Assembly (NCBI GenBank): GCA_030149205.1
Contig: JASBSB010000007.1
Location: 120,001-152,000 of the forward strand
Origin: Candidatus Heimdallarchaeota archaeon
GTDB taxonomy: Archaea; Asgardarchaeota; Heimdallarchaeia; Heimdallarchaeales; Kariarchaeaceae
Direction of reading: 5' to 3'
DNA: 32,000 nt
Part shown: positions 4,991 to 28,625 of the stretch, one piece after another
Layout of the letters: each line of letters begins with the position of its first letter
Numbering within the stretch: the first letter of the stretch is position 1
Program-made: the position numbers and the translations under genes
The notes under the pieces: model-generated
What the model saw: the letters and a program-made list of their open reading frames with translations, nothing else
Database searches by the model: none
Told to the model about the DNA's origin: nothing

Positions 4991-5082
4991 GGGCTGATAG
5001 ATCAGGCCGGTAGATCGCTTCGCTTGCATCTATTTTATAGAAAGAACCGAAGAGGCCGCGAGTTCAAATCTCGCTCAGTCCA
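4991..5082 (+). tRNA. tRNA-Ala(TGC) with 18-nt intron at 37/38 (5029-5046)
   Basis: Acceptor GGGCTGA/TCAGTCC with G3:U70, D stem GATC/GATC, anticodon stem CTTCG/CGAAG, T arm GCGAG-TTCAAAT-CTCGC. Intron hairpin CTAT/ATAG. Confidence 0.9.
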
Positions 5083-10788: not shown

Positions 10789-10874
10789 GGGTGCATAGTT
10801 TAGTGGCTATAACGCTGCCTTGACGAGTTGTCTCAAAATGGCAGAGGTCGGCGGTTCGAGTCCGCCTGCACCCA
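10789..10874 (+). tRNA. tRNA-Val(GAC) with 13-nt intron at 37/38 (10826-10838)
   Basis: Acceptor GGGTGCA/TGCACCC, anticodon stem CTGCC/GGCAG, T arm GGCGG-TTCGAGT-CCGCC. BHB core TTGA/TCAA. Confidence 0.92.
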
Positions 10875-13106: not shown

Positions 13107-13239
13107 AGCGAGATATCGAAGTGGCCAAACGAGATGGACTCAAGAAGGTGAGAATACGCTTCTCACAAGTTTAGGCATCCATTCCCGAAGGGGTTCGGGG
13201 GTTCGAATTACAAAATGTACGAAATTCCCCCTCTCGCTA
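13107..13239 (+). tRNA. tRNA-Leu(CAA) with two introns: 37/38 (13145-13176) and 59/60 (13208-13225)
   Basis: Acceptor AGCGAGA/TCTCGCT with A73, ATGGA-CTCAAG|A-TCCAT, long variable arm CCC-GAAG-GGG, T stem GGGGG/CCCCC. BHB core TTCG/CGAA. Confidence 0.88.
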
Positions 13240-13252
13240 TTTATTTTTGTAC

Positions 13253-14269
13253 CTACCTTGTTTTACTTAATATATTCATTAATACCCGTGGAACATCTTC
13301 ATGGCTGCTTACTGGAGCGTACCGACCACCGGTTTTCCTAGCCATGTCTTTACATAATCTTTGTCCCCACTCATACTTTGAGGGTAATCCTAATATGTGA
13401 AGCTTTGAAAATCTATGAAGTTGCTTCCTTGGGTCTCCACCTTTGTTGAACACTCCATCGGTGACCAAGATCGCAAATTTGTTTCGATCAGTCATTTTCG
13501 CCAACTCAATACCCCCAAGCTCTAGGGCTTCTGCAATGTTAGTATACCCTGCACTTTCTGCATCTAATATACGATCTACCAATGAGTTGATATCAATTTT
13601 TTCATCAACTCTTTTAATCAGATAAGGTTTGGTATTAAAGAGGATTACTGCATATCTATCATGGGCAAGGTGATAAGCCATCACAGCAACAGCCAAAGCA
13701 GCAGTCGTGAATTTTTCACCATATAGAGAGCCAGAAGTATCAAAAATTAGCACCCCAGATTTAGTTTTTTCCTTCCTCTCCATGGCTACTATTGTTTCAT
13801 AGGTAAGATATCCAGTTTCCATAAAATTCTCTAGTGTTAACTCATCATCGAACTCATCTACGTCTGGGGAATATTCTGTTTGTACCCAAACATTTCCTCT
13901 TAAACCTCTCCCTAGTATTCCTTGGGATACCTTAATAATGCTTCGCCTTGCAAGTCTTCTAAAAATTGGTTTAGTTCTTTCACTCAGATAGCCTCTGAGC
14001 ATGAAAAAAAGGTTTGGTGCTGTGTTATCACCAGAAGCTGCTCTTCTAGTTAGTAACTGTAATCCCTGTGAATTAGAAAGAGCGTCTGCCACAGAGTTTG
14101 GATTCGACAAAGCCAAGCCTTTGATTGCAGGGATGTTATCAACCTCTATAGCTGTGTCTGTCTTCTCTTTAATTGTCATGAAATCCATACCCTTTGAGAG
14201 TTGATGAAATTTCATTGGATTTCTCCTTCCTCGTACTATTTCAGCTTCAAGTACCTTTTCTTTGCTCAT
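13253..14269 (-). CDS. von Willebrand factor A domain protein (CoxE-like MoxR partner)
   Basis: MIDAS DTSGS, T (GYTN), TDG. SD GAGGT. Confidence 0.88.
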   Translation of the reverse strand: MSKEKVLEAEIVRGRRNPMKFHQLSKGMDFMTIKEKTDTAIEVDNIPAIKGLALSNPNSVADALSNSQGLQLLTRRAASGDNTAPNLFFMLRGYLSERTKPIFRRLARRSIIKVSQGILGRGLRGNVWVQTEYSPDVDEFDDELTLENFMETGYLTYETIVAMERKEKTKSGVLIFDTSGSLYGEKFTTAALAVAVMAYHLAHDRYAVILFNTKPYLIKRVDEKIDINSLVDRILDAESAGYTNIAEALELGGIELAKMTDRNKFAILVTDGVFNKGGDPRKQLHRFSKLHILGLPSKYEWGQRLCKDMARKTGGRYAPVSSHEDVPRVLMNILSKTR

Positions 14270-14334
14270 TTTACCTCGAAATGAGGGAATGCGCCGTAGA
14301 AGCTCATCAGGAATTTCTTCATTAATTCCTTCAC

Positions 14335-15210
14335 TTATATAAAATCCTCATCGTTGAGGATTTCTAAGATGACCTCTTTTAGGACATCTTCAACGCGTCT
14401 CTCAATCCCATCTTCAACCTCAACCTTCGTTGCCAAGGCCATTACACCTGCTTCAATCCAAGATTCTTTTTTCTCTTTATCCATAAATTGAAGAATGCTG
14501 GCATAATCGATAGCACCCCTTATTGATGATCCTCTTCGTAGGTCTGGCCACTCTCTGGTCAAACGTGTGATTTTCACAGTCACCCTCACAATATCCTCAT
14601 CATCGACTCCAGATCTTACTCTGGTAATTTGTTTTTCTTCATCCTCATCTTGGTATTCTAATCTAACCCAAGCAAATCTGTCTTTTAAGGCTTCACTCAA
14701 TGGAGTGGTAGCAACAAATTCTTGAGGATTCATTGCACTTATGACATAAAAACCATCTTTAGATATCACAGAGCCAAGCTTAGGGATAATAATACTTTTT
14801 TCATCCATAGCGGAAAGTAGAACATTTTGTGTTCCTTCTGGCATTCTGTTTAATTCATTGAGGAAGAGAATTGAGCCGTTTTGCATTGCACTTACCAACG
14901 GTCCTACCACAAAAGATTCCCAACTATATCCTTTTTGCATAACCATGGGTGGGTCAAAATGCCCCACAAGTCTTGCTGCACTGTATCTCTCATCTCCATC
15001 AACCCTTTCAATATTTTGTGAAAAGTATTTTGCAATGGCATGAGCCAATGTTGTCTTCCCCACACCCACATCCCCTTCAAGAAGAAGATGTCGACCTGCT
15101 AATTTCGCAGCCAAGGATTTCCTTAGCTCAATTTCCCTACCCACAATATTGAACTGATCCTGAATTTCCTTAATCATTTCATCAATGTTAGTTGTTTCTG
15201 TGGCATTCAT
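14335..15210 (-). CDS. MoxR-family AAA+ ATPase
   Basis: Walker A GDVGVGKT, Walker B LFLNE, sensor SAMNP, EALKDRF. ATG 15210 preferred. Confidence 0.9.
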   Translation of the reverse strand: MNATETTNIDEMIKEIQDQFNIVGREIELRKSLAAKLAGRHLLLEGDVGVGKTTLAHAIAKYFSQNIERVDGDERYSAARLVGHFDPPMVMQKGYSWESFVVGPLVSAMQNGSILFLNELNRMPEGTQNVLLSAMDEKSIIIPKLGSVISKDGFYVISAMNPQEFVATTPLSEALKDRFAWVRLEYQDEDEEKQITRVRSGVDDEDIVRVTVKITRLTREWPDLRRGSSIRGAIDYASILQFMDKEKKESWIEAGVMALATKVEVEDGIERRVEDVLKEVILEILNDEDFI

Positions 15211-15323
15211 AATTTTCCCTCGTTTCTTCAACGATATGGTCTTTTATAATGCTAGAATCTCTTTTTTAAAAAAGTCAAGTTTACTAACAATAGAATCTTG
15301 AATAAAAAATCTAAATATCTTCA

Positions 15324-16334
15324 TTAACCACCAATTAGTATCATTGCACGATCTGATAATGGTGGGCGATAATTCGCAATTCGAAAATCTGGATGCTCCT
15401 TCCATTTCTTCCTTAAGGCCTCGCGAATATGACCCTCTAATTCTGGATCCAATGGGTTTAACAGGTTGGTTAAGTTAATTTCATTTGAGGAGTGCAAACA
15501 TGGCCTTAAATTTCCATCAGCTGTTATTCTCACTCTGTCACAATTTTTGCAGAAGGAATCCGTAACACTAGGAATAAAACCAATCTTTACTTTTCCATCA
15601 ACATAATACATTGTGAAAGTTTGAGAGAGGTTATCTTTTTGAATTGGAGTAAGAGCATGGGTTTGTTCTATGACTTGGAGTATTTCATTTTTTGATAAAA
15701 ATTTATCTTGAAAGTTTAAATTTCCAGAGAAAGGCATGAGTTCAATAAATCTAACCTCTAAATTTGTGCCTTCTATAAATTTGATAAACTTAGGAATTTG
15801 TCTTTCTGTGAAGTCTTTTATTGCCACAACGTTGAGCTTAATAGATTCAAATCCCAACTGCAACGCAAACAATATTCCATTCATCATTTTTTGATATTGA
15901 TTTCTTTGAGTTATATATTGAAATTCTACCGGATCAATTGCATCAATGGAAATATTGATTCGTTTGAGACCAGCATTTAACAAGTCAATACCAAATTTTT
16001 CAAGTAAAACACCATTTGTTGTCATATTTAGTTCAATATTCGGACAATAATTTGATATGAACCTCACAATTTCAGTTAAATCTGGTCTTAATGTGGGTTC
16101 ACCACCTGTGAGTCTTATTTTATTGATTCCGAAAGAGTGAAAAACCTCTACGAGTAACTTTATCTCTTCAAGAGTTATCACATCTTTTGAATGATGTTCG
16201 TAAGAATCCTCTGGCATACAATATCTACAACGAAGATTACATTTTTCAGTTATAGAAATTCTTAGTGATCTGATTTCTCTCTCAAATGAATCAGTAAGTG
16301 GTTTCCTTAAGATATGAGTACAGGTATCAGACAC
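15324..16334 (-). CDS. moaA: GTP 3',8-cyclase (radical SAM)
   Basis: CNLRCRYC, RLTGGEP, FCKNCDRVRITADG.LRPCL, terminal IGG. Confidence 0.97.
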   Translation of the reverse strand: MSDTCTHILRKPLTDSFEREIRSLRISITEKCNLRCRYCMPEDSYEHHSKDVITLEEIKLLVEVFHSFGINKIRLTGGEPTLRPDLTEIVRFISNYCPNIELNMTTNGVLLEKFGIDLLNAGLKRINISIDAIDPVEFQYITQRNQYQKMMNGILFALQLGFESIKLNVVAIKDFTERQIPKFIKFIEGTNLEVRFIELMPFSGNLNFQDKFLSKNEILQVIEQTHALTPIQKDNLSQTFTMYYVDGKVKIGFIPSVTDSFCKNCDRVRITADGNLRPCLHSSNEINLTNLLNPLDPELEGHIREALRKKWKEHPDFRIANYRPPLSDRAMILIGG

Positions 16335-16440
16335 ATGTTTCCTCCTTTTAATTCTTCATAAATCTTTTCCCTGAAGAAGAATTTTAGAAATTAATTTCAA
16401 CAAACCAATGGTTTATCACTAAAAGTTAATTTGGGGTATT

Positions 16441-16698
16441 GTGAAAGTCATTTCTTTTGGCATTATAAAAGAAATTTTTGGGAATGAAGAGCTTATAATT
16501 AATTCAGATAAAGTTTCTACTGGCCGTGATCTTGAAAATTTTCTTTTTGAGAGGTTTCCTAACTTCAAAGATCTGGTTTTAAATGAAAAAATTAGACTAA
16601 TAATTCTCCTTAATGAAGAACAAAAATCAAATTTTGATGAGTGTTCAATCAGTGAAGGTGATGAAATTCATATCTTTCCACCTTTTTCTGGGGGGTGA
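16441..16698 (+). CDS. moaD: molybdopterin synthase sulfur carrier (MoaD/ThiS, ubiquitin-like)
   Basis: 85 aa ending GDEIHIFPPFSGG. Lies within the moa cluster. Confidence 0.88.
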   Translation: MKVISFGIIKEIFGNEELIINSDKVSTGRDLENFLFERFPNFKDLVLNEKIRLIILLNEEQKSNFDECSISEGDEIHIFPPFSGG

Positions 16699-17165
16699 GA
16701 ATCCCCAATCCACTGTCCAGAATCATCTGCATATATTTCTTTTTTCCACACTGGAATTTGGTGTTTATAGACATCTATTACCTTTTCAAGTGCAACATAA
16801 CCATTATCTCTATGCCCAGATGATACATAAACATACACAATTGGACTATTGACTGGCAAGTTTCCAAATAAATGTAAGACACGTATAGAATTGAGATCGT
16901 ATTTAACACCAACCTTTGTTAATAAGTCTGTGAGAATAATGTCACCCTTTTTTTCCCAATATTCTATTACCAAACTCTTAACTCTTTTTTCTGAGAGCAG
17001 TGAAGATTCCCTTACAACCCCTATAAAACTAAAAATAGAACCAATTTTACCCTCGGTTAGTTCAATTAACCTTTGATAAATTAAATCTGTATTTATAAGT
17101 TCGCTGTGAGGAATAAAGCCCCCTAAATACAGTTTTTTGGAGTTAATGAAACTTTCAAAATCCAT
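16668..17165 (-). CDS. moaE: molybdopterin synthase catalytic subunit
   Basis: SFIGVVRE, SSGHR, KHQIPVWKKEIY. Confidence 0.92.
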   Translation of the reverse strand: MDFESFINSKKLYLGGFIPHSELINTDLIYQRLIELTEGKIGSIFSFIGVVRESSLLSEKRVKSLVIEYWEKKGDIILTDLLTKVGVKYDLNSIRVLHLFGNLPVNSPIVYVYVSSGHRDNGYVALEKVIDVYKHQIPVWKKEIYADDSGQWIGDSHPPEKGGKI

Positions 17166-17602
17166 TAATCCGACACATCCACCTTAGTTTTCTTAGTCAC
17201 TTTGATATCTGTAATCAAAGTGTTTGGATACTGACCAGATGAATCTTTCTCATATCTTTTTGAAAGATCGAATATAGCCAACAAAGCGGCTTGTACCCCC
17301 ATTACAGACTCTATTTCACATCCTGTTTTATCTATAACAGTTACTTTAACTGTGGCAGTGACAAAGTTTTTTTCTATGTTAAACAATACCTTTGTTTGGG
17401 TAATTTTGAGAGGATGGCACATAAAAACAATTTCTGGCGTTTTTTTCACTGCGTTTATTGCTGCTAGTTTAGCATTTTCAAGGACATCTCCTTTTGGATT
17501 GGAATTATTAAGTATCTGAGAAATGGATTCAGAAGATAGAGTAATAGTCCCAGTTGCTGTGGCAGTTCGGATTTGTACTGGTTTATCAGAAATGTTTATC
17601 AT
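17165..17602 (-). CDS. moaC: cyclic pyranopterin monophosphate synthase
   Basis: KGDVL, KKTPEIVFMCHPL, TGCEIES, IFDLSK. TAATG coupling to moaE. Confidence 0.93.
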   Translation of the reverse strand: MINISDKPVQIRTATATGTITLSSESISQILNNSNPKGDVLENAKLAAINAVKKTPEIVFMCHPLKITQTKVLFNIEKNFVTATVKVTVIDKTGCEIESVMGVQAALLAIFDLSKRYEKDSSGQYPNTLITDIKVTKKTKVDVSD

Positions 17603-17801
17603 CTTTGAGTTAAATAGTTTGAATCAATTATATTAATTTTGAATTAGATGGGGCAAAAATTCTAAATTTGTGTAATATTCAATTTCTTTTGTTGGGTTAA
17701 TCTGTGAAACATAGTGATAATGTCAAAAATTCCATAAAAATTATGAGGAAAGATTGCTTAGAAGAAATCTATTTATTATGAAGAATCAAATGTTTACTTA
17801 A

Positions 17802-18968
17802 ATGAATTCATTTTATTCAGAGTTAACGCAGTTTTTAGCTATTCCAGGCCCTGTGGAAATTCATCCAAAGGTCTATGAGGCAATGAACAGACATCTTTAT
17901 GGTCATAGAACAGATCAATTCAGAAAAATATATGTCGATTGTGAGAAAAAATTTCAACCAACAATCCAGACCAATCAGCCAATTTACTTTCTAGCAGGAT
18001 CTGGTTCTCTAGGTTTACACGCAGCCATCACTAACATGGTAGCCAAGGAGGATAAGGTCATCAACCTAGTTAACGGAAAGTTTGGTGAAAGGGTGGAAAA
18101 AATTAGTCAGAGGTTTAGTAATTACTCTCTTGTATTAAGAGAAGAATATGGTAGAGCAATCAAACCTGAAAAAGTACAAGAGCTCTTGGAAAAAAATCCG
18201 GATACAAAACTAGTAACAATTACACATAACGAAACATCAACAGCTGTATTGAATCCCTTACCAGAAATATCTAAAATTGTTCATGATCATGGTGCTCTTC
18301 TAATGGCTGACTGTATAACTTCAGCCGGTGGAGATCTTGTGAAAATGGACGACTGGAAAATTGATTTCTTTGTTTCTGGTTCTCAAAAATGTTATGGATT
18401 ACCCCCAGGTCTATCGTTTGTTTCCTTTAGTGATGAAGCAGCAAAAAGAATGGAAGAAGTCCCAAGAAACCAAGATTTTTACTCTGATCTACTAATGTAT
18501 AGAGAAAAAATGAGTAAAGCACCAGACACTCCTTTCACACCAGCTGTTTCGTTGATGTATGGTTTACAAGCTTCTTTAGACCTTATACACGAGGAAGGCA
18601 TGGAAAATAGGATAAACAGACATAGATTAATGGGGACGGTCTACAGGTCTGCGTTGGAAGAACTTGGCGTTGAACTATTGGCAGAGGAGGGATACAGAAG
18701 CAATACAGTCACTGCAGCGATATTCCCAAATGGTGTTGACCCCTCAAAGTTCATGACCTACATGAAACAATATGGGATATTAGTTACAGGGGGACAAGGC
18801 TCATTAAAAGGGAAAATCTGGAGAGTTGGGCACATGAATCTAGTTGGACCTCGTGAGATTTTAACCATCACCTCAGTGGTAGAATTAGCTCTAAAAAAAG
18901 CCGGTGCAAATATAAAATTGGGGTCTGGAGTAGCAAAAATTTTAGAAATCTTAAATGAAACTGAATAG
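17802..18968 (+). CDS. class V PLP aminotransferase (serine-pyruvate/alanine-glyoxylate type)
   Basis: IPGP, HNETST, SGSQKCYGLPPG (PLP Lys), WRVGHM. Confidence 0.92.
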   Translation: MNSFYSELTQFLAIPGPVEIHPKVYEAMNRHLYGHRTDQFRKIYVDCEKKFQPTIQTNQPIYFLAGSGSLGLHAAITNMVAKEDKVINLVNGKFGERVEKISQRFSNYSLVLREEYGRAIKPEKVQELLEKNPDTKLVTITHNETSTAVLNPLPEISKIVHDHGALLMADCITSAGGDLVKMDDWKIDFFVSGSQKCYGLPPGLSFVSFSDEAAKRMEEVPRNQDFYSDLLMYREKMSKAPDTPFTPAVSLMYGLQASLDLIHEEGMENRINRHRLMGTVYRSALEELGVELLAEEGYRSNTVTAAIFPNGVDPSKFMTYMKQYGILVTGGQGSLKGKIWRVGHMNLVGPREILTITSVVELALKKAGANIKLGSGVAKILEILNETE

Positions 18969-19004
18969 TTAGTTTAAATAGGCACACATCCACAGCTAAA
19001 TTGA

Positions 19005-20069
19005 ATGAAAATTTGGTTTGAAGCCCTAACTGGAAAACAAGCGTTGTTTTTCCATTATATTGCGAAATATTTTGAAGAGAAGGGACACACAACAGTTTTC
19101 ACAACCAGAAATTATGATTATGTTGAGGGGAATTTGAGGAGGTTAAATCGAACGAACTACTTCTCCATAGGTAAATACGGGGGAACCTCTCTCAAATCCA
19201 AGCTAATAGCCGGAACCAAAAGAGTGTTAGAATTAGCAGAGATAATGGATGCAGAGAGACCTGATGTTCTTATAACTCTAGCCTCTCCTGATGCATCACG
19301 AACAGCATTTGGGTTGGGGATTCCAATCATTCAAATAAATGACACACCTCATGCTAGAGCTGTAGGGAGGCTAACTCTCGCAATTTCGGAATATCTAATT
19401 CATCCAGCGGTTATAAATTCTGAAATTTTTCGAAGGCTAGGGGCTCAAAATATTTTAACATATTCTGGTGTTGATGAGATTCTTTGGATAAAAGATTTTA
19501 TTCCTGATCACTCAACTCTCGAAATCTTGAACTTAACTGAATATAATTTCATAGTCGTTAGATGTGAAGAGAGTAAAGCTGCGTACTTTCAAGAGATGTA
19601 TCCTGAAGTAGATCCAGGGAGTACAATCGTCGTAAAGATTATTGAAGAGTTAGAAAATAGGGGTGTAAAAATGAAAATTGTTGCATTTCCAAGGTATGAG
19701 GAACAAAGAGACATCCTTTCTAAATTTAACGATCAAGTAATTATTCCTGATGAATCAGTTGATACATTAACCTTACTGTATTATGCGAAAGTAGCTATGA
19801 CCGGTGGTGGGACTATGGGAAGAGAGGGTGCTCTTTTAGGCACTCCCACAATATATTCATTTCCAAAAGAGTTGGATGTGTCAAGGTATGTTACTAAGAT
19901 GGGATTTCCCCTTATCCATTTTCCAGATCATACAAATGTCCCTGAAAAAATTATTGAGTTACTAAATTATCCTCGAATGGAAGAATCCAAAAGAATTGAA
20001 AAAATTAAAGAAATTGAAACTCCTATTAAGAGCCTTAATAAAGCCCTCAACAATTTAAAATTGATATAG
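19005..20069 (+). CDS. DUF354 family protein (GT-B glycosyltransferase-like)
   Basis: KIWFEALTGKQ, IGKYGG..LKSKL, NDTPHA, GGGTMGREGALLGTP. Confidence 0.85.
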   Translation: MKIWFEALTGKQALFFHYIAKYFEEKGHTTVFTTRNYDYVEGNLRRLNRTNYFSIGKYGGTSLKSKLIAGTKRVLELAEIMDAERPDVLITLASPDASRTAFGLGIPIIQINDTPHARAVGRLTLAISEYLIHPAVINSEIFRRLGAQNILTYSGVDEILWIKDFIPDHSTLEILNLTEYNFIVVRCEESKAAYFQEMYPEVDPGSTIVVKIIEELENRGVKMKIVAFPRYEEQRDILSKFNDQVIIPDESVDTLTLLYYAKVAMTGGGTMGREGALLGTPTIYSFPKELDVSRYVTKMGFPLIHFPDHTNVPEKIIELLNYPRMEESKRIEKIKEIETPIKSLNKALNNLKLI

Positions 20070-20070
20070 G

Positions 20071-21087
20071 ATGAATCTTGAGCTAATTTACATTTTAGCA
20101 TTCATAATTTCATTAATAGCTTCATTACTCATAACACCTCTAGTTGCAAAATATATGAAGAAAATTGGAAAAGTTGGAAAAGATGTTCACAAGGTGGATC
20201 TTCCAGAAACCCCAGAATCGGTTGGGTTAGGATACGTAATAATCTTTACACTTACGCTACTGGGTGGCATTTTAATAACAAATGATGAATTAACCCGACA
20301 ACGGTTAACTATCATGGTTGTTGTGATGGTTCTTGTAATAGCTATTGGGCTTTATGATGATTTTAAAACATTATCTGCAATACTTAAACCGGGATTATTG
20401 ATTCTTGTGTCTCTTCCGATTGTGATATTCCAAGTTGCTGATCCAAGACCTGTGATACCTTTTGTTGGACCTGTGCGTTTGACATTGGTTTATTGGGGAT
20501 TGGCTGCTTTGGTTGTTGCCATAACCAGTAACGCATCAAACATGATCGATGTTCTAAATGGAACTATGAGTGGTTCTGGAATATTGATCGCTTTCACTGC
20601 ATTTGCTGCAAGTTTCATTGTCCCACTTTCATCTTCTCAACAGTTTATCGCAAGGTATTCATCACTTGCACTCGCAGGAGCATTACTTGGGTTCTTCTGG
20701 TATAATCGATACCCAGCGAAAGTGTTTGCAGGTGATACAGGCAGCCTTGGAACCGGTGCTGCAATAGGGCTAATCGCCATCTATGGGAAGTTAGAGTTTG
20801 TTTTAATTGTTGCATTACTAGTTCATATTATGAACAGCTTCTCAATTCTTTCTTCAATTGGAGGGTTAAAGGAAAGGAGAGAGATACAAAGCAGACCTGT
20901 TAAAGTGGAAAATGGTATTATATATCCATCCTTAGATAAGAAAGCCCCCATAACATTGGTTAGATTAATAGTCTCAAAAAGACCAAAAACTGAAAAAGAG
21001 GTTGTTAATGCAATTCTCTTTCTAGTCTTATACTCCTGTATCTTAGCCTTGTTTAGTGCATATTTGATCTTGGAGGTTTCATTTTAA
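20071..21087 (+). CDS. aglH: UDP-GlcNAc:dolichyl-phosphate GlcNAc-1-phosphotransferase (MraY/GPT/AglH family)
   Basis: GKDVHK, GLYDD, NASNMIDVLNG, YPAKVFAGDTG, multiple TM helices. Confidence 0.85.
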   Translation: MNLELIYILAFIISLIASLLITPLVAKYMKKIGKVGKDVHKVDLPETPESVGLGYVIIFTLTLLGGILITNDELTRQRLTIMVVVMVLVIAIGLYDDFKTLSAILKPGLLILVSLPIVIFQVADPRPVIPFVGPVRLTLVYWGLAALVVAITSNASNMIDVLNGTMSGSGILIAFTAFAASFIVPLSSSQQFIARYSSLALAGALLGFFWYNRYPAKVFAGDTGSLGTGAAIGLIAIYGKLEFVLIVALLVHIMNSFSILSSIGGLKERREIQSRPVKVENGIIYPSLDKKAPITLVRLIVSKRPKTEKEVVNAILFLVLYSCILALFSAYLILEVSF

Positions 21088-21344
21088 TGTCACTTAAAGA
21101 AAACAGCGAGCTTATTTTACTATTAACTAACGTGTGGTTTATGCTATTGGGATTATGTGGGATAATTGGAGGATTTGTGGTAACAATAGATCTTGCAAGA
21201 TCCTACATTGAAAATTTGGGGATTGGTGCTATGAAGGTGATGGTATCCTTCTTAGTGTTAGGGTTTTGGTTAATAATATGGTATACCCTTATGAGATTAA
21301 CCCTAGTTTCAAACTTGTCTGAGTTAAAAGCAGACAATAGTTAG
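21087..21344 (+). CDS. small two-TM protein
   Basis: TAATG overlap with the upstream gene and two hydrophobic helices. Confidence 0.6.
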   Translation: MSLKENSELILLLTNVWFMLLGLCGIIGGFVVTIDLARSYIENLGIGAMKVMVSFLVLGFWLIIWYTLMRLTLVSNLSELKADNS

Positions 21345-21437
21345 CAAAAATCGAATTAAATAAGTTAAGAAAATTAATGTACAAAATATTCTAAAGATAG
21401 AGAAATTATTTTAATAAGTTCTTCTCTCCTTGTACTC

Positions 21438-22370
21438 ATGGAGTTTGAAAAGGATTTAATTACACTAAAATCATATTCAAAGGAACAGATTCAGCACCTG
21501 CTTGAACTTTCAAGTAACGTTAAACAGAAAATGAAAAAGAAAGAGCTGTATCAACCTCTGAAGGGATATTCGATGTCAATGATTTTTCAAAAAAGATCAA
21601 CTAGAACTAGAGTAAGTACTGAGACGGGGATGGCCTATTTAGGAGGACATTCACTATTTTTAGGAAAGGATGATATTCAGCTTGGAAAGAACGAATCCTT
21701 AAAGGATACTGCTTTAGTACTCTCTCGGTTTAATGACCTAATACTTGCAAGGGTCTTCGCACATAGTGACGTTGAAGAGCTAGCAACCCATTCCAAAGTG
21801 CCTGTTATAAATGCACTTTCTGACACCTACCACCCTCTTCAGATACTTGCAGATTACTTGACTATCAGAGAGCATTTTGGAAAACTAGAGGGTTTAACTA
21901 TTGCATGGGTAGGGGATGGTAATAATGTTCTTCATTCATTTATGGTTTCTGCTGCAAAACTCGGTATTAATCTTAGGGTGACCACACCACATAATTTTCG
22001 CCCTAATTCAGAAATAATTGATTATGCTAAAACTTCCTCAAATGAGCATAACACTGAGTTTTTATTAACAGATGATCCGAAAGAGGGAGTCAAGGGTGCA
22101 GACATAATTGTAACTGACACGTGGGTTTCAATGGGACAAGATGAAGAATATGAGGCAAGAATCAAAGCTTTTAACGGTTATCAGGTGACGGAGGAGCTTG
22201 GGAAATTTGCAAATCCAAATTGGAAGTTTATGCATTGTTTACCTAGAAAACAACATGAGGTTAATGATGAGGTGTTTTACTCAAAGAGATCTATTGTGTT
22301 TGATGAGGCAGAAAACAGAATGTACACCGTTATGGCTGTAATTTTAGCTCTTTTAAGAATGGATAAGTAA
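21438..22370 (+). CDS. argF: ornithine carbamoyltransferase
   Basis: STRT, HPLQ, DTWVSMG, HCLP, EAENR. Confidence 0.97.
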   Translation: MEFEKDLITLKSYSKEQIQHLLELSSNVKQKMKKKELYQPLKGYSMSMIFQKRSTRTRVSTETGMAYLGGHSLFLGKDDIQLGKNESLKDTALVLSRFNDLILARVFAHSDVEELATHSKVPVINALSDTYHPLQILADYLTIREHFGKLEGLTIAWVGDGNNVLHSFMVSAAKLGINLRVTTPHNFRPNSEIIDYAKTSSNEHNTEFLLTDDPKEGVKGADIIVTDTWVSMGQDEEYEARIKAFNGYQVTEELGKFANPNWKFMHCLPRKQHEVNDEVFYSKRSIVFDEAENRMYTVMAVILALLRMDK

Positions 22371-22483
22371 TCGAGGAATCAGTTCGGGAGGTGAAGCCTC
22401 TTACGAAAGCTTAAAAAAAAGGATTCTTGTAATTTAGTCTATGAAACAATGGGTTTGATTTATACATCTATCCATGTTTCTGT

Positions 22484-22609
22484 GTCTGAGTAGCTCAGCT
22501 GGTTAGAGCGCAAGACTCATAAGTAAAATAAAGGCAAGACACAACACTGTGAAATCTTGAGGTCGCGGGTTCGAGAAAAGTTTTTCTTTCGAAATTCCCG
22601 CCTCAGACA
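22484..22609 (+). tRNA. tRNA-Met(CAT), probably elongator, with two introns: 37/38 (22522-22553) and 59/60 (22576-22595)
   Basis: Acceptor GTCTGAG/CTCAGAC, D stem GCTC/GAGC, anticodon stem CAAGA/TCTTG, T stem GCGGG/CCCGC. BHB core TTCG/CGAA. Ile2 identity not excluded. Confidence 0.9.
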
Positions 22610-22670
22610 TAATCTATACTCAAAATACTTTAATATGTTTAATTTTAAGTAAGCCATCTATCTCTATAAT

Positions 22671-23474
22671 TTGTTTAAAGCAAGCCATCCATTTTCCGGG
22701 ATTATGACCACCTTATTTTCGATTATTATTACATCGAAAGTGACAAAGAACTTTGAAGTTATTGTGATCGTTGGGTCCTTAATCTTGCTTTCTCAGCTCA
22801 TAGTTGGGATTTCAAATGATTTTTTAGATTTAGAAACTGATAGACTATACCAACCAGACAAACCATTAGTTAATACCACAATATCTTCAACTCAAATAAA
22901 AATAGCATTGGGAATTTTGGGAGGGGGATTTATAACTCTTGGTTTCCTTTATACGACAGCTATTGGAGCTGTTGTTTTGACAATTGGAATTCTGAGTGGT
23001 CTTAGCTATAACCTTGGATTTAAACGCACAATCTATAGTCCTGGATCATACTTTCTCGCCTTTGGAATGCTTTTTTTGCTTCCTTTTACTTTTGTTAAAC
23101 CTGAGTTGATTTTTAGTGCATCACCAGTTTTTATGATTTCTGGTTTCATCTTAATTTTTCAAGGGCATATACTTAATTCCATAATTGATATTGATACTGA
23201 TAAAATTACGAGGAACTTTAATTTTGTTGTACAACTTGGTGAGAGAAACTCAGTATTCATTGTAATAATTGGAATGTTAGTTCAAATAATTTTAAACATT
23301 GATACTCTACCAGTGGCTTTAATTTTCCTAATCATGCTAATTTCATTAATGATGGTGTATAGAAATTCAAAGAGTTATCAAAAATATTATTATGGTTTTG
23401 TAGTTTTGGGTTTAATCGCAATCAGTCAAATAAAGTTGTTTACGCCCCCAACAGGAATTTCATCTTTTTGGTGA
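22671..23474 (+). CDS. UbiA-family prenyltransferase
   Basis: NDFLDLETD...DKPL and NSIIDIDTD Asp-rich motifs, many TM helices. TTG start uncertain. Confidence 0.8.
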   Translation: MFKASHPFSGIMTTLFSIIITSKVTKNFEVIVIVGSLILLSQLIVGISNDFLDLETDRLYQPDKPLVNTTISSTQIKIALGILGGGFITLGFLYTTAIGAVVLTIGILSGLSYNLGFKRTIYSPGSYFLAFGMLFLLPFTFVKPELIFSASPVFMISGFILIFQGHILNSIIDIDTDKITRNFNFVVQLGERNSVFIVIIGMLVQIILNIDTLPVALIFLIMLISLMMVYRNSKSYQKYYYGFVVLGLIAISQIKLFTPPTGISSFW

Positions 23475-23534
23475 TTTTGAACCTGTGACCTTCCGGTTAA
23501 CAGCCGGATGCTCTGCCAGCTAAGCTATGGAGGC
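23443..23534 (-). tRNA. tRNA-Asn(GTT) with 19-nt intron at 59/60 (23457-23475)
   Basis: Acceptor GCCTCCA/TGGGGGC with G73, TCCGG-CTGTTAA-CCGGA, T stem ACAGG/CCTGT. BHB core TTCA/TGAA. Confidence 0.9.
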
Positions 23535-23736
23535 ATGGAGCTGTGTTTACAGCAATCCGAATCAGCAACAATTCCTATTCTTAAAATCTTAACGAAAGAT
23601 TACGTTGATACTGATTTCTTTTGACACTCTACTAAACATTTCCATTGGTTAAAAATCCCTTTAGAAATAGATTCCAAAAGAAGTTTATTTCACAACTATT
23701 AAAAGCTAATATAAAGAACTTAATTTGAAATAGATT

Positions 23737-24387
23737 ATGTCAGCAAATCAGGGACAATATTCAGAAGAGTTAGGTCTTCAGTCTATAAAGAAAAGCATTG
23801 AAAATGAAGCCAAGTTGAGACATGACATTATACTCTCTGAGGGCAAAAAAGAAGCTGAGAAGATTATCAAAGAAGCGAAATCAGAGGCTGAAAAAACTAA
23901 AAATAAATTATTCAGCGATGCCAAAAATCAAGCAAATCAGCATAAACAACAGAGAATTTCCAAGATCAAGTTAGAATCACAGATGAACTTTCTTAAATTT
24001 AGAGAAGAGGTTATAGATAATATTTTGGTCGACCTACAAACAGATCTTCAAAAGTTTACTAAGACAAAAGAGTATCCAAAGGTTTTGGAAAGATTTTTGT
24101 TAGAGAGTGCATTAGCTATTGGAGGAGGTGACTTGGAGATTCTGATGAAAAAGGAAGATCAGACCCATCTAAGTGACGCTCTTTTGAGCAAAATTAGTAA
24201 AGAAGTTAACACAGAAATTGGAGTTGTGACGAAATTTAGTTTCGGGAAGCCATTAACTAACACTATTGGAGGGCTCAAGACTTTTAGAAAAGACGGGAAA
24301 ATTTTGGTTGATGACACCTTTGAAGCTCGAATTAATCGAAAAATCGATGTAATTAGAAACACTGTAGTTGAAAAGCTTCTGAGTTAG
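23737..24387 (+). CDS. atpE: A/V-type ATP synthase subunit E
   Basis: N-terminal coiled coil, TIGGLKT..KDGKILVDDTFEARI. Confidence 0.85.
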   Translation: MSANQGQYSEELGLQSIKKSIENEAKLRHDIILSEGKKEAEKIIKEAKSEAEKTKNKLFSDAKNQANQHKQQRISKIKLESQMNFLKFREEVIDNILVDLQTDLQKFTKTKEYPKVLERFLLESALAIGGGDLEILMKKEDQTHLSDALLSKISKEVNTEIGVVTKFSFGKPLTNTIGGLKTFRKDGKILVDDTFEARINRKIDVIRNTVVEKLLS

Positions 24388-24397
24388 GTGAAATTTT

Positions 24398-24946
24398 GTG
24401 AAACTTAATAGACTACTGTTTTTATTTTTATTCCTTCTCTTATTATCTCAAGGTCAGACTGCAATAAATGGAGATGTCTTTATAGGGTATGGTGGTTATA
24501 TTTCTAGTCAACAGATTACTCAGGGCTCAACAGTGGTCTTTACTGGATCTGTCGATTATAACTCAACTCAGACAACAGCCAAAGTAAAATCTATGAACGT
24601 GAGTTTTATAATTTATTCTGCAAATGTGTTGATTTCAAGACATAATTTCACAAAGACATACGTCACAGCAGATCAACAATCCTTCGTTAAAAATCAAACT
24701 TTTACTGGCACTCTAAGAACGAAGATAGACCTTCCTCCATCAGCCTATAATGTTTCAATATCATTCGATATCGCTGAAGGGACGGGGTCTGTCTATAGCC
24801 AATATTATTCATTAAGAAACCAAACTGTGTATGTAATTGGACAAACAAATACAGGAAGGGTGTTACAAAACATCCTCATAGGTTTAACTATAATTGGAGG
24901 AATTGGTGTAATTTTTTATCTTTACAGAAGGTATTTTAGACGTTAG
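24398..24946 (+). CDS. predicted exported beta-rich protein with C-terminal membrane anchor
   Basis: Signal-peptide-like N-terminus, C-terminal TM helix and basic tail RRYFRR. Confidence 0.6.
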   Translation: MKLNRLLFLFLFLLLLSQGQTAINGDVFIGYGGYISSQQITQGSTVVFTGSVDYNSTQTTAKVKSMNVSFIIYSANVLISRHNFTKTYVTADQQSFVKNQTFTGTLRTKIDLPPSAYNVSISFDIAEGTGSVYSQYYSLRNQTVYVIGQTNTGRVLQNILIGLTIIGGIGVIFYLYRRYFRR

Positions 24947-24976
24947 AATTTAAACTTTAATGAATTATTGGGAATT

Positions 24977-25795
24977 ATGAACCCAGAAATAATGGGTATA
25001 TTAAATCTCTCTCCAGATAGCCCAGTGGTTAGTTCAATATTTAAAGGGGATATTGAGAGAGATTTAGTGGATCGAGCAGAGAGGATGGTAGAAGAAGGGG
25101 CCTCTTATATTGATATAGGGGGTAATTCATCTTCCTCATTAGCAATCGAGATATCTCCATTAGAGGAGGAGAAAAGAATATTAGAAGCTGTGAAAATCCT
25201 TTGTGACAGTGGGTTCCAAGTTTCTGTTGATAGTTGGACTCCATCAATCCTAAAAAAGGCTCTTGATTTAGGGATTTCAGTAGTTAATGATATTTCAGGA
25301 GGTTCTAACCCCGAAATACTAAATTTAATAGAAACGTATAAACCAAAATACTGTGTTATGCATCAAATAACCAAACCCAAAATGCATTACTCTGTTAATC
25401 AAAATTTCCCACATTTGATTGAGAGAATTGTGAAAGACCTCAATAATGTTGGAGAGTACCTAATTTCAAAGGGAATCCCGAAGAAAAAAATTTATTTAGA
25501 TCCAGGATTTGGTTTTGGACGGGATGGTCACTCAAATATGGAAATTTTAAGACATTTAGAGGAACTAAAATTTTTGGGGTATCCAATATTGGTATCTGCA
25601 TCTAAAAAAGCATTTTTGGGGGAATATCTTCCTAATTTTAACCGTAGTCAGAAAGACCCCAGGTTATATGAAGCCACTTTAGCTTTTAATCTGTTACTAA
25701 TGTTAAAAGGGACGAGCGTATTAAGAGTTCATGATGTAAAGGGAATTGCAATCGTGAGAGACGTAGTTAAAGAATTTTTTAATGTAAAGCTGTAA
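24977..25795 (+). CDS. folP: dihydropteroate synthase
   Basis: [42 protein letters not shown]. Confidence 0.92.
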
Positions 25796-27053
25796 ACCCT
25801 GGATACAGGGGGAACTGGTCACAAAGTTCATTGACACCTTGTTTAATTTCTTGAAGAACGTTTTTGTCTTGATAATTATCTAATGTCTTCACTATAAACT
25901 CTCCAATTGTTTTCATTTCAGACTTTCCGAGACCTCGGGTGGTGAGAGCAGGAGTCCCAATTCGAATACCTGATGGATCGAAAGGTGTTCGTGTATCAAA
26001 GGGAATCATATTTTTGTTGGTGAAAATTCCAACCTCATCCAATGTTCTTTCTGCGATTTTTCCACCCATATTATATTTTGATATATCTAATAATATTAGA
26101 TGATTGTCTGTTCCTCCTGAAACCAATGTTGCACCATTTTCAATCAAACTCTCTGCTAAAGCCTTTGCATTAACCTTTATAGATTTAGCATATTCTATAA
26201 AATCTGGTTGAAGTGCCTCTTTAAATGAAACAGCCTTAGCTGCAATAATGTGATCCAGAGGCCCACCCTGCATTCCAGGAAAAACTGCCTTATTTATTGA
26301 TGCCTCATATTCTTCCTTTCCCATGATAATCGCTCCTCTTGGTCCCCTTAAGGTTTTATGGGTGGTTGTAGTCACTACGTCAGAATATGGGACAGGGTCA
26401 GGATGAACCTTTGCTGCAACAAGCCCAGCAATGTGTGCAATATCTGAAACCAAAAATGCATCAACTGAATCAGCAATTTCTTTAAAATGTTTAAAATCAA
26501 GCTCTCTTGAATATGCTGAAAAGCCAGCCATTATCAACTTCGGATTTGTTTCTTTAGCAATCATTTCAACCTTATTCATGTCAATTCTACCTGTCTCTTT
26601 TTCAACTCCGTACGAGTTGATCTTATAAAAATGACCTGAAAAGTTAACCTTATGACCATGAGTTAGATGACCCCCATGATCAAGTGACATACTTAAAATA
26701 GGGTCTCCTATTTCTATCAGGGCGAAGTATGTTTCCATGTTTGCAGAACTTCCAGAATGTGATTGGACATTGACAAAATCTGCACCGAATAGTTTTTTTG
26801 CCCTTGAAATTGCCAATTGCTCTGCCACATCGATATATTCGTTTCCTCCGTAGTATCTTTTTCCTGGATATCCTTCAGAATATTTATTCGTTAATACAGA
26901 CCCCATTGCCTCTAAGACAGCCTTTGAGACATAATTCTCCGAGGCAATCATTTCTAACCCTCTTCGACCTCTGTTTAGCTCATTGATCAGAACATCATAA
27001 ATTTCTTTGTCAGAATTATCCAATGAATTCAAAAACCAATCGTGATACATCAA
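25779..27053 (-). CDS. glyA: serine hydroxymethyltransferase
   Basis: [38 protein letters not shown]. Confidence 0.97.
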
Positions 27054-27116
27054 ATCTCATTGAATATATAATTCTTTAAGGATTTGGCTACAAGCTGAAT
27101 AAATTTGCAATTAAAA

Positions 27117-27221
27117 TGCTGAGGGGGGGAATTTCATTATTGATTATAATTTTGAACCCCCGAACCTCTATAGGATAAGGATCTGAACCTTACGCCGTTG
27201 ACCAAGCTGGGCGACCTCAGC
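27117..27221 (-). tRNA. tRNA-Leu(CAG) with 20-nt intron at 59/60 (27131-27150)
   Basis: Acceptor GCTGAGG/CCTCAGC with A73, TAAGG-TTCAGAT-CCTTA, variable arm CCT-ATAG-AGG, T stem GGGGG/CCCCC. BHB core TTCA/TGAA. Confidence 0.9.
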
Positions 27222-27273
27222 AGTAATTTAAGTAGAAATTATAGTTATTTAAAACTCAGTATTGTTATTTAGT

Positions 27274-27825
27274 TTAAACCATAGTGCCCGATTTGTCGTA
27301 TGTAAATATTCCATCCATAAAGGTTTTAGGTGATTTTCTTCGTGATCCACGCAGTCTTGTTAGTTCCTGAATATTTGCACAGGTTTGACCTACATGTTCC
27401 TTATCAATTCCAGAAACAAATAAATTTTCACCATCTAATTTAATCTTTACATCTGGTAATGCCTTTGCAAATTTGGGTTTTCTCCCACCATAAAGGTTCT
27501 CTACTTTTACTGTTGTTCCAGAGGTTGAAACCTTAATTGGAAAGTGAGAAAATACGATTTTCATGCTATATTTATATCCTAATGTAACACCATTGATCAT
27601 GTTGTTGATATGAGCTACCACTGTTCCTAATAGGGCTTTTTCCTTTTTCTTCGGGAACAAAGTTGTCATAGTTAGAATATTATCATTGAATGTAATTTTA
27701 ATTCCTGTGTGTGTAAAGTCTTTTGTAAGACTTCCCAATTCACCTTTAATTGTAACCTCAGATCCTTTTAATGTGCAAGTAACTGCTTCTGGGATCTCTA
27801 TTTCTTTTTGTATTCTACCATACAT
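27274..27825 (-). CDS. rpl6: 50S ribosomal protein uL6
   Basis: HINNMINGVTLGY, FSHFPI, DGIF. ATG 27825 preferred. Confidence 0.96.
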   Translation of the reverse strand: MYGRIQKEIEIPEAVTCTLKGSEVTIKGELGSLTKDFTHTGIKITFNDNILTMTTLFPKKKEKALLGTVVAHINNMINGVTLGYKYSMKIVFSHFPIKVSTSGTTVKVENLYGGRKPKFAKALPDVKIKLDGENLFVSGIDKEHVGQTCANIQELTRLRGSRRKSPKTFMDGIFTYDKSGTMV

Positions 27826-27836
27826 AGCAATCACAC

Positions 27837-28226
27837 TCAGTAAACATAGGCAAGCAGTCTACCACCAACGTGTTGATCAACTGCATCCCTTTGTGTCATC
27901 ACACCATTTGGTGTACTTAACACGAGAATTCCAAAATTCACTGCAGGAAGGTATTGCTTTTCAAATCTGTCAAATTCTGACACTTTTGCAGGTCTTCTAG
28001 GCTTAATTACTGCACATTTGTTGATTCTTCCCAACAACTGCACCTTAAACTGACCACCTTGTGCATCTTCTATCCTTTCAAACTCACCTACATATCCAGA
28101 TTTTTGTAATGTTGCAAGTACATTCTCTAACAGGTTACTAATAGGGCGTAAGTGAACGACCTTTCTTCCAAGTCTATCAAAGGTATTAATTTTATTTAGC
28201 GCATTTGCTAAAGGGTCTAGTAACAT
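27837..28226 (-). CDS. rps8: 30S ribosomal protein uS8
   Basis: DPLANAL, GYVGEFE, LLGRINKC, STPNGVM, GGRLLAYVY. SD GAGGTG. Confidence 0.97.
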   Translation of the reverse strand: MLLDPLANALNKINTFDRLGRKVVHLRPISNLLENVLATLQKSGYVGEFERIEDAQGGQFKVQLLGRINKCAVIKPRRPAKVSEFDRFEKQYLPAVNFGILVLSTPNGVMTQRDAVDQHVGGRLLAYVY

Positions 28227-28230
28227 TGTA

Positions 28231-28404
28231 TCATCCACCTCTTGTTCCTGAAGTTCGGAATCCTAAATCTTCCGCAATTTCTCTAAAACATCTTCGACAT
28301 ATCAGCAAATTTGCACGACGTATAATTCCGTGATGTGTCCCGCATCTTCTACATTTGCGGGTTCCTTCACCTACGGAACGCCCTTTCTTTTCTATTGTTC
28401 TCAT
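28231..28404 (-). CDS. rps14: 30S ribosomal protein uS14 (Zn-binding; missing from the ORF track)
   Basis: Manual translation: MRTIEKKGRSVGEGTRKCRRCGTHHGIIRRANLLICRRCFREIAEDLGFRTSGTRGG. SD GGAGTGA. Confidence 0.95.
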   Translation of the reverse strand: MRTIEKKGRSVGEGTRKCRRCGTHHGIIRRANLLICRRCFREIAEDLGFRTSGTRGG

Positions 28405-28510
28405 AGTATCACTCCTTATTTCAATCAGGTCTAGTAACCTTAAAGCAGGATTAATTGAGATGATATTTCTTTATTTTAAAAGGTAAATATTGGTTACAGA
28501 AATTAATTTA

Positions 28511-28625
28511 CGCCTCCGCCGGGAATTTCACCAGTAAAGCTCAATTACTAAGATTTGAACCCGGGTCGAAAGAGTTCTGCAGAATATGACAGTCTTCCAT
28601 GATAGCCTAACTACACTACAGAGGC
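28511..28625 (-). tRNA. tRNA-Asp(GTC) with two introns: 37/38 (28575-28586) and 59/60 (28525-28553)
   Basis: Acceptor GCCTCTG/CGGAGGC with G73, GAAGA-CTGTCA|C-TCTTT, T stem CCGGG/CCCGG. BHB cores CTGT/GCAG and TTCA/TGAA. Confidence 0.9.

Follow-up and report, generated by a model that had tools for sequence, protein, structure and literature searches.

The stretch analysed here (the window) is 32,000 nucleotides (nt) of a Heimdallarchaeota genome, positions 120001-152000 of contig C8 in an assembly of 3.31 Mb, 12 contigs and a G+C content of about 0.35 that we call G000. A reading of its G+C-rich islands reveals seven tRNA genes, five of which harbor a short insert in the T-loop, immediately after position 59. 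All five inserts terminate in YGAAAT, and the pattern GGTTCRA-N10-40-GAAAT, which has an expectation of 0.65 in the window, matches five times. Once the insert is excised, ARAGORN calls a normal cloverleaf for each of the five genes. The inserts (18, 20, 19, 20 and 29 nt), their positions, bulge-helix-bulge (BHB) structure and shared ending are as the original prediction, made from the letters alone, had described them; we consider it very probable that they are genuine archaeal BHB introns, removed by protein enzymes, at T-loop position 59/60. The genes and their introns are as follows.

13107-13239, plus strand: tRNA-Leu(CAA), two introns, A1-U72 acceptor pair (direct reading; called Leu-CAA by ARAGORN once both introns are excised)
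13145-13176, plus strand: Leu-CAA 37/38 intron, 32 nt (L32 solution, junction one base past position 37, 3′ bulge GC/A)
13208-13225, plus strand: Leu-CAA 59/60 BHB intron, 18 nt (minimum-free-energy fold)
22484-22609, plus strand: tRNA(CAT), two introns, Met by its anticodon (elongator Met, initiator or Ile2; reading plus splice-and-rescan)
22522-22553, plus strand: tRNA(CAT) 37/38 intron, 32 nt, whose core AAGGCAAGA also occurs in the 34-nt intron of the ortholog in the congeneric genome G002
22576-22595, plus strand: tRNA(CAT) 59/60 BHB intron, 20 nt (central helix TTCG/CGAA, bulges AGA and ATT)
23443-23534, minus strand: tRNA-Asn(GTT), T-loop intron only (reading plus splice-and-rescan)
23457-23475, minus strand: Asn-GTT 59/60 BHB intron, 19 nt (BHB scan)
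27117-27221, minus strand: tRNA-Leu(CAG), T-loop intron only (reading plus splice-and-rescan)
27131-27150, minus strand: Leu-CAG 59/60 BHB intron, 20 nt (BHB scan)
28511-28625, minus strand: tRNA-Asp(GTC), two introns (reading plus splice-and-rescan)
28575-28586, minus strand: Asp-GTC 37/38 intron, 12 nt (L12 solution, central helix 4/4, outer helix 6 bp)
28525-28553, minus strand: Asp-GTC 59/60 BHB intron, 29 nt (BHB scan plus folding)
4991-5082, plus strand: tRNA-Ala(TGC), G3-U70, only an 18-nt 37/38 intron, a comparison gene (mislabelled Ser-TGA by ARAGORN)
10789-10874, plus strand: tRNA-Val(GAC), only a 13-nt 37/38 intron, a comparison gene (ARAGORN and Rfam model)

The 37/38 introns of the window end in AA or GC, as had been stated, and their splicing solutions confirm it. 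The expectation that default finders would miss these genes is likewise borne out: ARAGORN at default settings detects one of the seven, and the Rfam tRNA model two at its gathering score, with a third only as a partial match. Several features stand beside these genes. The A1-U72 acceptor pair of tRNA-Leu(CAA) and its 3-bp D stem (TCG/CGA) are both unusual for an elongator tRNA. A plus-strand open reading frame (ORF) of 267 amino acids (22671-23474), the start or end of which may differ, runs about 30 nt into the 3′ end of tRNA-Asn on the minus strand. At 19980-20002, within an ORF, lies a weak match to a direct-repeat model of clustered regularly interspaced short palindromic repeats (24.4 bits, E about 1) that is probably noise.

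Census of interrupted tRNA genes in the genome

For the census of G000, both strands were scanned for BHB motifs, the candidates were spliced, and ARAGORN was run again; a relaxed scan gave 9.8 million candidates, which were filtered by exon G+C, a step that loses genes with long A/T-rich 37/38 introns, and two scans were combined for the final census. It holds about 45 confident tRNA genes, of which 24 have a 59/60 intron, 14 a 37/38 intron only, and 7 none. Half of the T-loop-split genes (12 of 24) also have a 37/38 intron, and 26 introns lie at that position altogether. Thus 84% of the tRNA genes are interrupted, at about 1.1 introns per gene, and 53% carry a 59/60 intron; the census found no introns at positions other than these two. 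The 24 genes are spread over four contigs, and a T-arm BHB covariance model built from them recovers exactly those 24 in G000. They are Ala-CGC, Ala-GGC, Arg-TCT, Asn, Asp, Gln-CTG, Gln-TTG, Glu-CTC, Glu-TTC, Gly-CCC, Gly-GCC, Gly-TCC, all five Leu, one Met, Pro-TGG, Ser-CGA, Ser-GCT, Ser-GGA, Thr-GGT, and Trp.

The 59/60 introns of G000 measure 17-30 nt (median 20.5, most 17-21 nt), and most of its 37/38 introns 10-14 nt. At orthologous genes in its congeners the sizes are about 30-36 nt at 37/38 and 29-31 nt at 59/60, the latter being also the usual length of 59/60 introns among relatives at large, and the introns of G000 are miniaturised relative to those orthologous genes.

Intronless copies of the same isoacceptors, which the original prediction had named as grounds for refutation, were sought for all 24 genes and none was found in the G000 assembly, from which about 6% of the genome is missing. 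As there are no such copies, splicing of the T-loop introns would be obligatory: it would be needed for Asn, Asp, and Trp, each with a single gene, and for complete isoacceptor sets (5/5 Leu, 3/3 Gly, 2/2 Glu, 2/2 Gln). The practical consequence is considerable. Even with introns permitted, ARAGORN finds only 23 tRNAs in the unspliced genome, and about half of its tRNA genes, including all those for Leu, Gly, Glu, and Gln and the only ones for Asn, Asp, and Trp, escape both ARAGORN and the Rfam tRNA model; because so many are missed, conclusions on genome completeness or codon usage drawn from those tools would be wrong.

A few calls deserve separate mention. After splicing, ARAGORN labels Ala-TGC as Ser-TGA, Gln-TTG (G000:C2:525506-525613) as Lys-TTT, and Leu-CAA as Val-CAC, because the intron boundary that it chooses shifts the anticodon. 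Two long ARAGORN calls lack a clean tRNA solution (C2:550767-550995 and C4:656008-656167); these, a Lys-CTT with a 138-nt "intron" and a selenocysteine-like call, may be multiply interrupted genes, tRNA-Sec, or false calls. Two further genes (C7:348060-348142 and C8:37367-37450) could not be assigned among Arg-TCG, Arg-CCG, and Pro-CGG, and since there are two genes for three anticodons, one of the three has no gene in the assembly.

Geometry, pairing, and predicted splicing of the T-loop introns

All 24 inserts conform to one strict geometry, two 3-nt bulges on opposite strands with a 4-bp helix between them, marred in two introns by a single G57.A mismatch. In the precursor, the T stem would provide the outer helix, T54-T55-C56-R57 would pair with the intron YGAA to form the central helix, and a short intron hairpin would be the inner helix; A58, N59, and the first intron base would make up the 5′ bulge, and the last two intron bases and U60 the 3′ bulge. 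The evidence for these pairings is comparative. The 5-bp T stem is paired throughout (100%), the inner helix to 95.6% with covariation at all three of its pairs, and, counting one sequence at one pair as a cell, 98.2% of cells are paired (76% in shuffled sequences), and 62 cells show a change in both partners. Sliding the partner columns lowers pairing to 66% or less. The R57:Y pair covaries too, being A-U in 15 of the 24, G-C in 7, and G.A in the two introns that end in AGAA. From the pairing, the slide control, and this covariation it follows that YGAA is forced by pairing with T54-R57, as had been claimed for its GAA. Furthermore, ARAGORN returns a complete cloverleaf with a 7-nt T-loop for the 24 genes only upon excision after the second bulge base.

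The predicted geometry is identical to the one at 37/38 in the anticodon loop: each of the two sites is a 7-nt loop on a 5-bp stem, cut between loop bases 6 and 7. The two-subunit tRNA endonuclease of G000, EndA, would cleave both bulges behind their second base, and the RtcB ligase would then rejoin the exons and restore the T-loop TTCRANT. Both enzymes are encoded in G000. RtcB (PF01139) is matched at E = 9e-167, and there are two EndA paralogs (PF01974/PF02778, two matches) of about 190-205 amino acids each. One of them, P0001, is closest to the crenarchaeal catalytic subunits 3P1Z_B, 2CV8, and 2ZYZ_B (A. pernix, S. tokodaii, and P. aerophilum), and in alignment to 3P1Z_B it retains the Tyr, His, and Lys. 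Its loop aligns without gaps to the Crenarchaea-specific loop (CSL) of A. pernix EndA, placing, in this sequence alignment, Lys at ORF residue 72 opposite K44, the CSL residue that recognises RNA (Hirata 2011, PMC3241643). The other, P0002, has Ser aligned with the catalytic His of M. jannaschii. An (alpha-beta)2 EndA with an L1 loop has been reported for Asgard archaea (Kaneta 2018, PMC5829648), and the G000 enzyme is predicted to be of this two-subunit type with an L1/CSL loop, comprising a catalytic alpha and a beta-like subunit.

Is the common ending of the introns a sign of common origin? The 3′ bulge of the 24 reads ATT in 16, AAT in 5, AGT in 2, and TTT in 1, and its first base is A in 23; the 5′ bulge is AAA in 17. 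The "AT" that all five window introns share therefore holds for the window and for 16 of 24 genome-wide, the window figure being a sampling effect. The 37/38 introns of G000 end mostly in AA, and the 59/60 endings of relatives include, among the matches listed, GAAAAT, GAAATT, GAAAGT, and GAAACT. A at the first base of the 3′ bulge is a strong preference, and U at the second a weaker preference of this genome. As for the interiors, all-vs-all local alignment of the 24 introns gave a maximum score of 16 vs 15.2 for shuffled sequences and a mean of 7.23 vs 7.23, and the idea of a family by homology within G000 does not survive this comparison: the shared ends are attributable to structural constraint, together with a preference for certain bulge bases, rather than to recent common descent within G000. 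We also considered whether the 3′ end of the intron duplicates the T-loop, and rejected it, as TGAAAT and TCAAAT agree only if R57 is A.

The hairpins themselves vary. Many of the 29-31 nt T-loop introns of relatives are capped by C-UGCG-G, a UNCG-type tetraloop (for example G002:C35:4761-4802, G001:C27:22793-22835, G058:C13:171408-171450, and G069:C72:7985-8027), and GUAA loops, of the GNRA type, occur in the Gly-GCC and Trp T-loop introns of G000. Such caps suggest selection for very stable short hairpins.

Several points weigh against the interpretation as spliced introns. Splicing at this site is something that we infer from DNA, and the argument from portability made below is one of reasoning. 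In addition, isolated T-arms folded at 37 C give only modest z-scores (-1.1 to -2.4), and among the five T-arms of the window the minimum-free-energy structure is an exact BHB only for Leu-CAA. The Asp T-arm comes near: its central helix forms, but the 5′ bulge has 4 nt; in that of Met the central helix is paired but prolonged through the 5′ bulge; and in those of Asn and Leu-CAG the A/U-rich central helix is absent from the best fold. The enzyme may stabilise the motif where the isolated T-arm fails to form it. The same dependence on DNA leaves some room for the inserts to be retained T-loop expansions, pseudogenes, or assembly artefacts, a view that we find barely credible given that one geometry with compensatory changes recurs in 24 genes on four contigs, that the affected genes are the sole ones for many anticodons, and that the feature appears in 279 assemblies (see below), including complete, long-read-validated genomes in which tRNAscan-SE calls an intron.

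Turnover and copying of introns among relatives

The distribution beyond G000 was surveyed with the pattern GGGTTCRA-N10-40-YGAANNTCCC and its reversed control in a phylum sample of 400 genomes. G000 has 21 matches and none in the control, and the pattern is present in 279 of the 400 genomes, with reversed controls near zero. Among the matches listed, 21 is the highest count, followed by 14, 12, 11, 11, and 10. One genome in the sample, G042, has the coordinates of the published Atabeyarchaeia-2 genome, where tRNAscan-SE calls the same introns (e.g., Glu-CTC at 668566-668587); this match puts G000 in Asgardarchaeota. Within the genus, the standard tRNA model counts 22 tRNAs in G000, 38 in G001, 24 in G002, and 36 in G003, and in the rest of the order 27-48, apart from 23 in G009 (63% complete) and 13 in G013. 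The description of these introns as lineage-wide thus holds for the site across the phylum and fails for the genus, where two of the three congeners, G001 and G003, carry few of them, lack those that could be compared, and have 36-38 standard-model tRNAs vs 22. Intron states of orthologous genes are listed below.

Met: G000, 37/38 and 59/60 (20 nt); G001, 37/38 only; G002, 37/38 and 59/60 (29 nt, interior unrelated); G003, not found; G004 and G008, 37/38 only
Asn: G000, 59/60 only; G001, not found; G002 and G003, 37/38 only
Leu-CAG: G000, 59/60 (20 nt); G001, 37/38 (30 nt); G002, 59/60 (29 nt); G003, G006, and G008, none
Asp: G000, 37/38 and 59/60; G001, not found; G002, 37/38 and 59/60; G003, not found

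G002 has further 59/60 introns in Leu-TAA, Ser-GCT, Gly-GCC, and Arg-CCG, and it shares the 59/60 state with G000 in six of six comparable isoacceptors, the intron interiors being unrelated. No Leu-CAA ortholog was found in the relatives by DNA query. Covariance-model searches of the relatives scored only 132-150 first-look candidates with a model that favours short introns and missed known G002 introns, so that a count of zero from them does not show that introns are absent. Taken together, orthologous tRNAs switch among a 37/38 intron, a 59/60 intron, and no intron within a single genus.

The clearest sign of movement comes from G002. Its 59/60 introns in Leu-CAG, Leu-TAA, and Asp-GTC are 83-93% identical vs 50-79% for the flanking exons, and the identity of their interiors (0.83-0.91) lies above all 500 shuffles (maximum 0.74); the family is marked by TTTCAYTACTGCGGTWGTGG. 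Matches to this motif with 3 mismatches in G000, G001, G003, G008, and G002:C398 were dismissed as chance, lying outside tRNA genes and lacking a BHB. The near-identical introns indicate copying between unrelated tRNA genes. The suggestion that introns had spread among tRNA genes therefore gains support from G002, where similar introns occur across isotypes, and not from G000, where none do.

How far can copying account for the G000 introns? In one scenario, all 24 would stem from a single mobile intron copied from gene to gene, as in Thermoproteales (Fujishima 2010). The G002 family lends this some weight, as does the agreement of G000 and G002 in their 59/60 states despite unrelated interiors, which would fit repeated replacement. 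We nevertheless regard a single mobile source as unlikely, since the G000 interiors resemble one another no more than shuffles do, their conserved ends are wholly accounted for by pairing, and a recent preprint on other Asgard lineages saw no route by which introns are generally copied (10.64898/2026.10.13.758758). A broader proposal, which we put forward tentatively and at somewhat less than an even chance, is that the T-loop is a universal landing pad: portable YGAA introns would be actively copied and replaced within the genus, producing a species-level burst in G000 (24 genes) and swaps between 37/38 and 59/60. The portability on which it builds belongs to our main reading: T54-R57 hardly varies from one tRNA to the next, and an intron that ends in YGAA would therefore make a valid BHB in any tRNA gene, whereas the pairing partners of a 37/38 intron lie partly in the anticodon. 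Such portability would explain both the crowding and the fast turnover at 59/60 in the genus. If the proposal is true, it would provide a clear Asgard case of intron copying among tRNA genes, a route that the 2026 preprint (10.64898/2026.10.13.758758) did not detect in its focal lineages.

Another idea concerns why such introns are kept. By interrupting the T-arm and 3′ end used as an attachment site by integrases, they could be retained as protection against integration, an older hypothesis attributed to Randau and Soll 2008 in PMC4090602. G000 has just three tyrosine-recombinase matches, none of them adjoining a tRNA gene, as such protection would have it; few integrases near tRNAs are expected in any case, however, and this scarcity has no bearing either way on defence. 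The preprint saw no mobile-element enrichment near gained introns or control tRNAs, and we consider anti-integration improbable as the reason for retention. Most deserving of pursuit are the turnover within the genus and the intron family of G002: the genus presents none, 37/38, 59/60, and both as intron states in close relatives, a series suited to studying how introns arrive.

Comparison with known systems

Position 59/60 is explicitly listed as a non-canonical intron site (Marck and Grosjean 2003; Sugahara 2008), as stated in the review by Yoshihisa 2014 (PMC4090602). The G000 introns resemble the known non-canonical archaeal introns in their site, in the hBHBh′ form, in the protein-only splicing by EndA and ligase that they would undergo, and in their frequent presence alongside a 37/38 intron in one gene. 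They differ in that the known ones, found chiefly in Thermoproteales and other Crenarchaeota, are spread across many sites, whereas all 24 of G000 lie at one site and are very short (17-30 nt). Our understanding of how such introns are spliced is unchanged. The EndA of G000 shares with the (alpha-beta)2 enzymes of TACK and Asgard archaea the two paralogs, the nearness of alpha to crenarchaeal catalytic subunits, and the Lys opposite K44; it differs in what it would cut, as the T-loop introns of G000 are strict BHB motifs of the kind described as cut by narrow-specificity enzymes, and because they are strict, a broad-specificity loop is not required to explain them.

With regard to mobility, the intron transposition of Thermoproteales (Fujishima 2010, according to the summaries in PMC4033280 and PMC4090602) has its counterpart in the near-identical introns across isotypes of G002; the likeness does not extend to G000, and the G002 copies all sit at 59/60 rather than at varied sites.

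The nearest parallels lie within the same phylum. Valentin-Alvarado 2024 (PMC11291895) put the share of interrupted tRNA genes in Atabeyarchaeia and Freyarchaeia at 92-95%. The preprint, covering 90 Asgard genomes, found introns concentrated at 37/38 with the T-arm as a second hot spot, a ranking that those two groups share with G000. It reconstructed 129 gains, repeated and mostly on terminal branches, found no general route of arrival, and named the arrival of introns in archaeal tRNAs as the central open problem (10.64898/2026.10.13.758758). Supplementary Data 4 of the published Asgard set places 59/60 introns in about 15 of 38 Freyarchaeia and 11 of 43 Atabeyarchaeia-2 tRNA genes, counting introns that end 14 or 17 nt ahead of the 3′ end. 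The original prediction had been unaware of such a density in an Asgard-like genome; heavier interruption had in fact been published (PMC11291895; 10.64898/2026.10.13.758758), with 59/60 introns already called by tRNAscan-SE. Those genomes average about 2.2 intervening sequences for each gene, spread over many sites, the D-arm among them, as against about 1.1 at two positions in G000, which belongs to a different class and has the larger 59/60 share (53%). G000 is thus an unusually dense case of a kind of intron already described for Asgard archaea, and it brings in a further lineage, separate from the Asgard classes published as intron-rich, where one non-canonical site is dominant.

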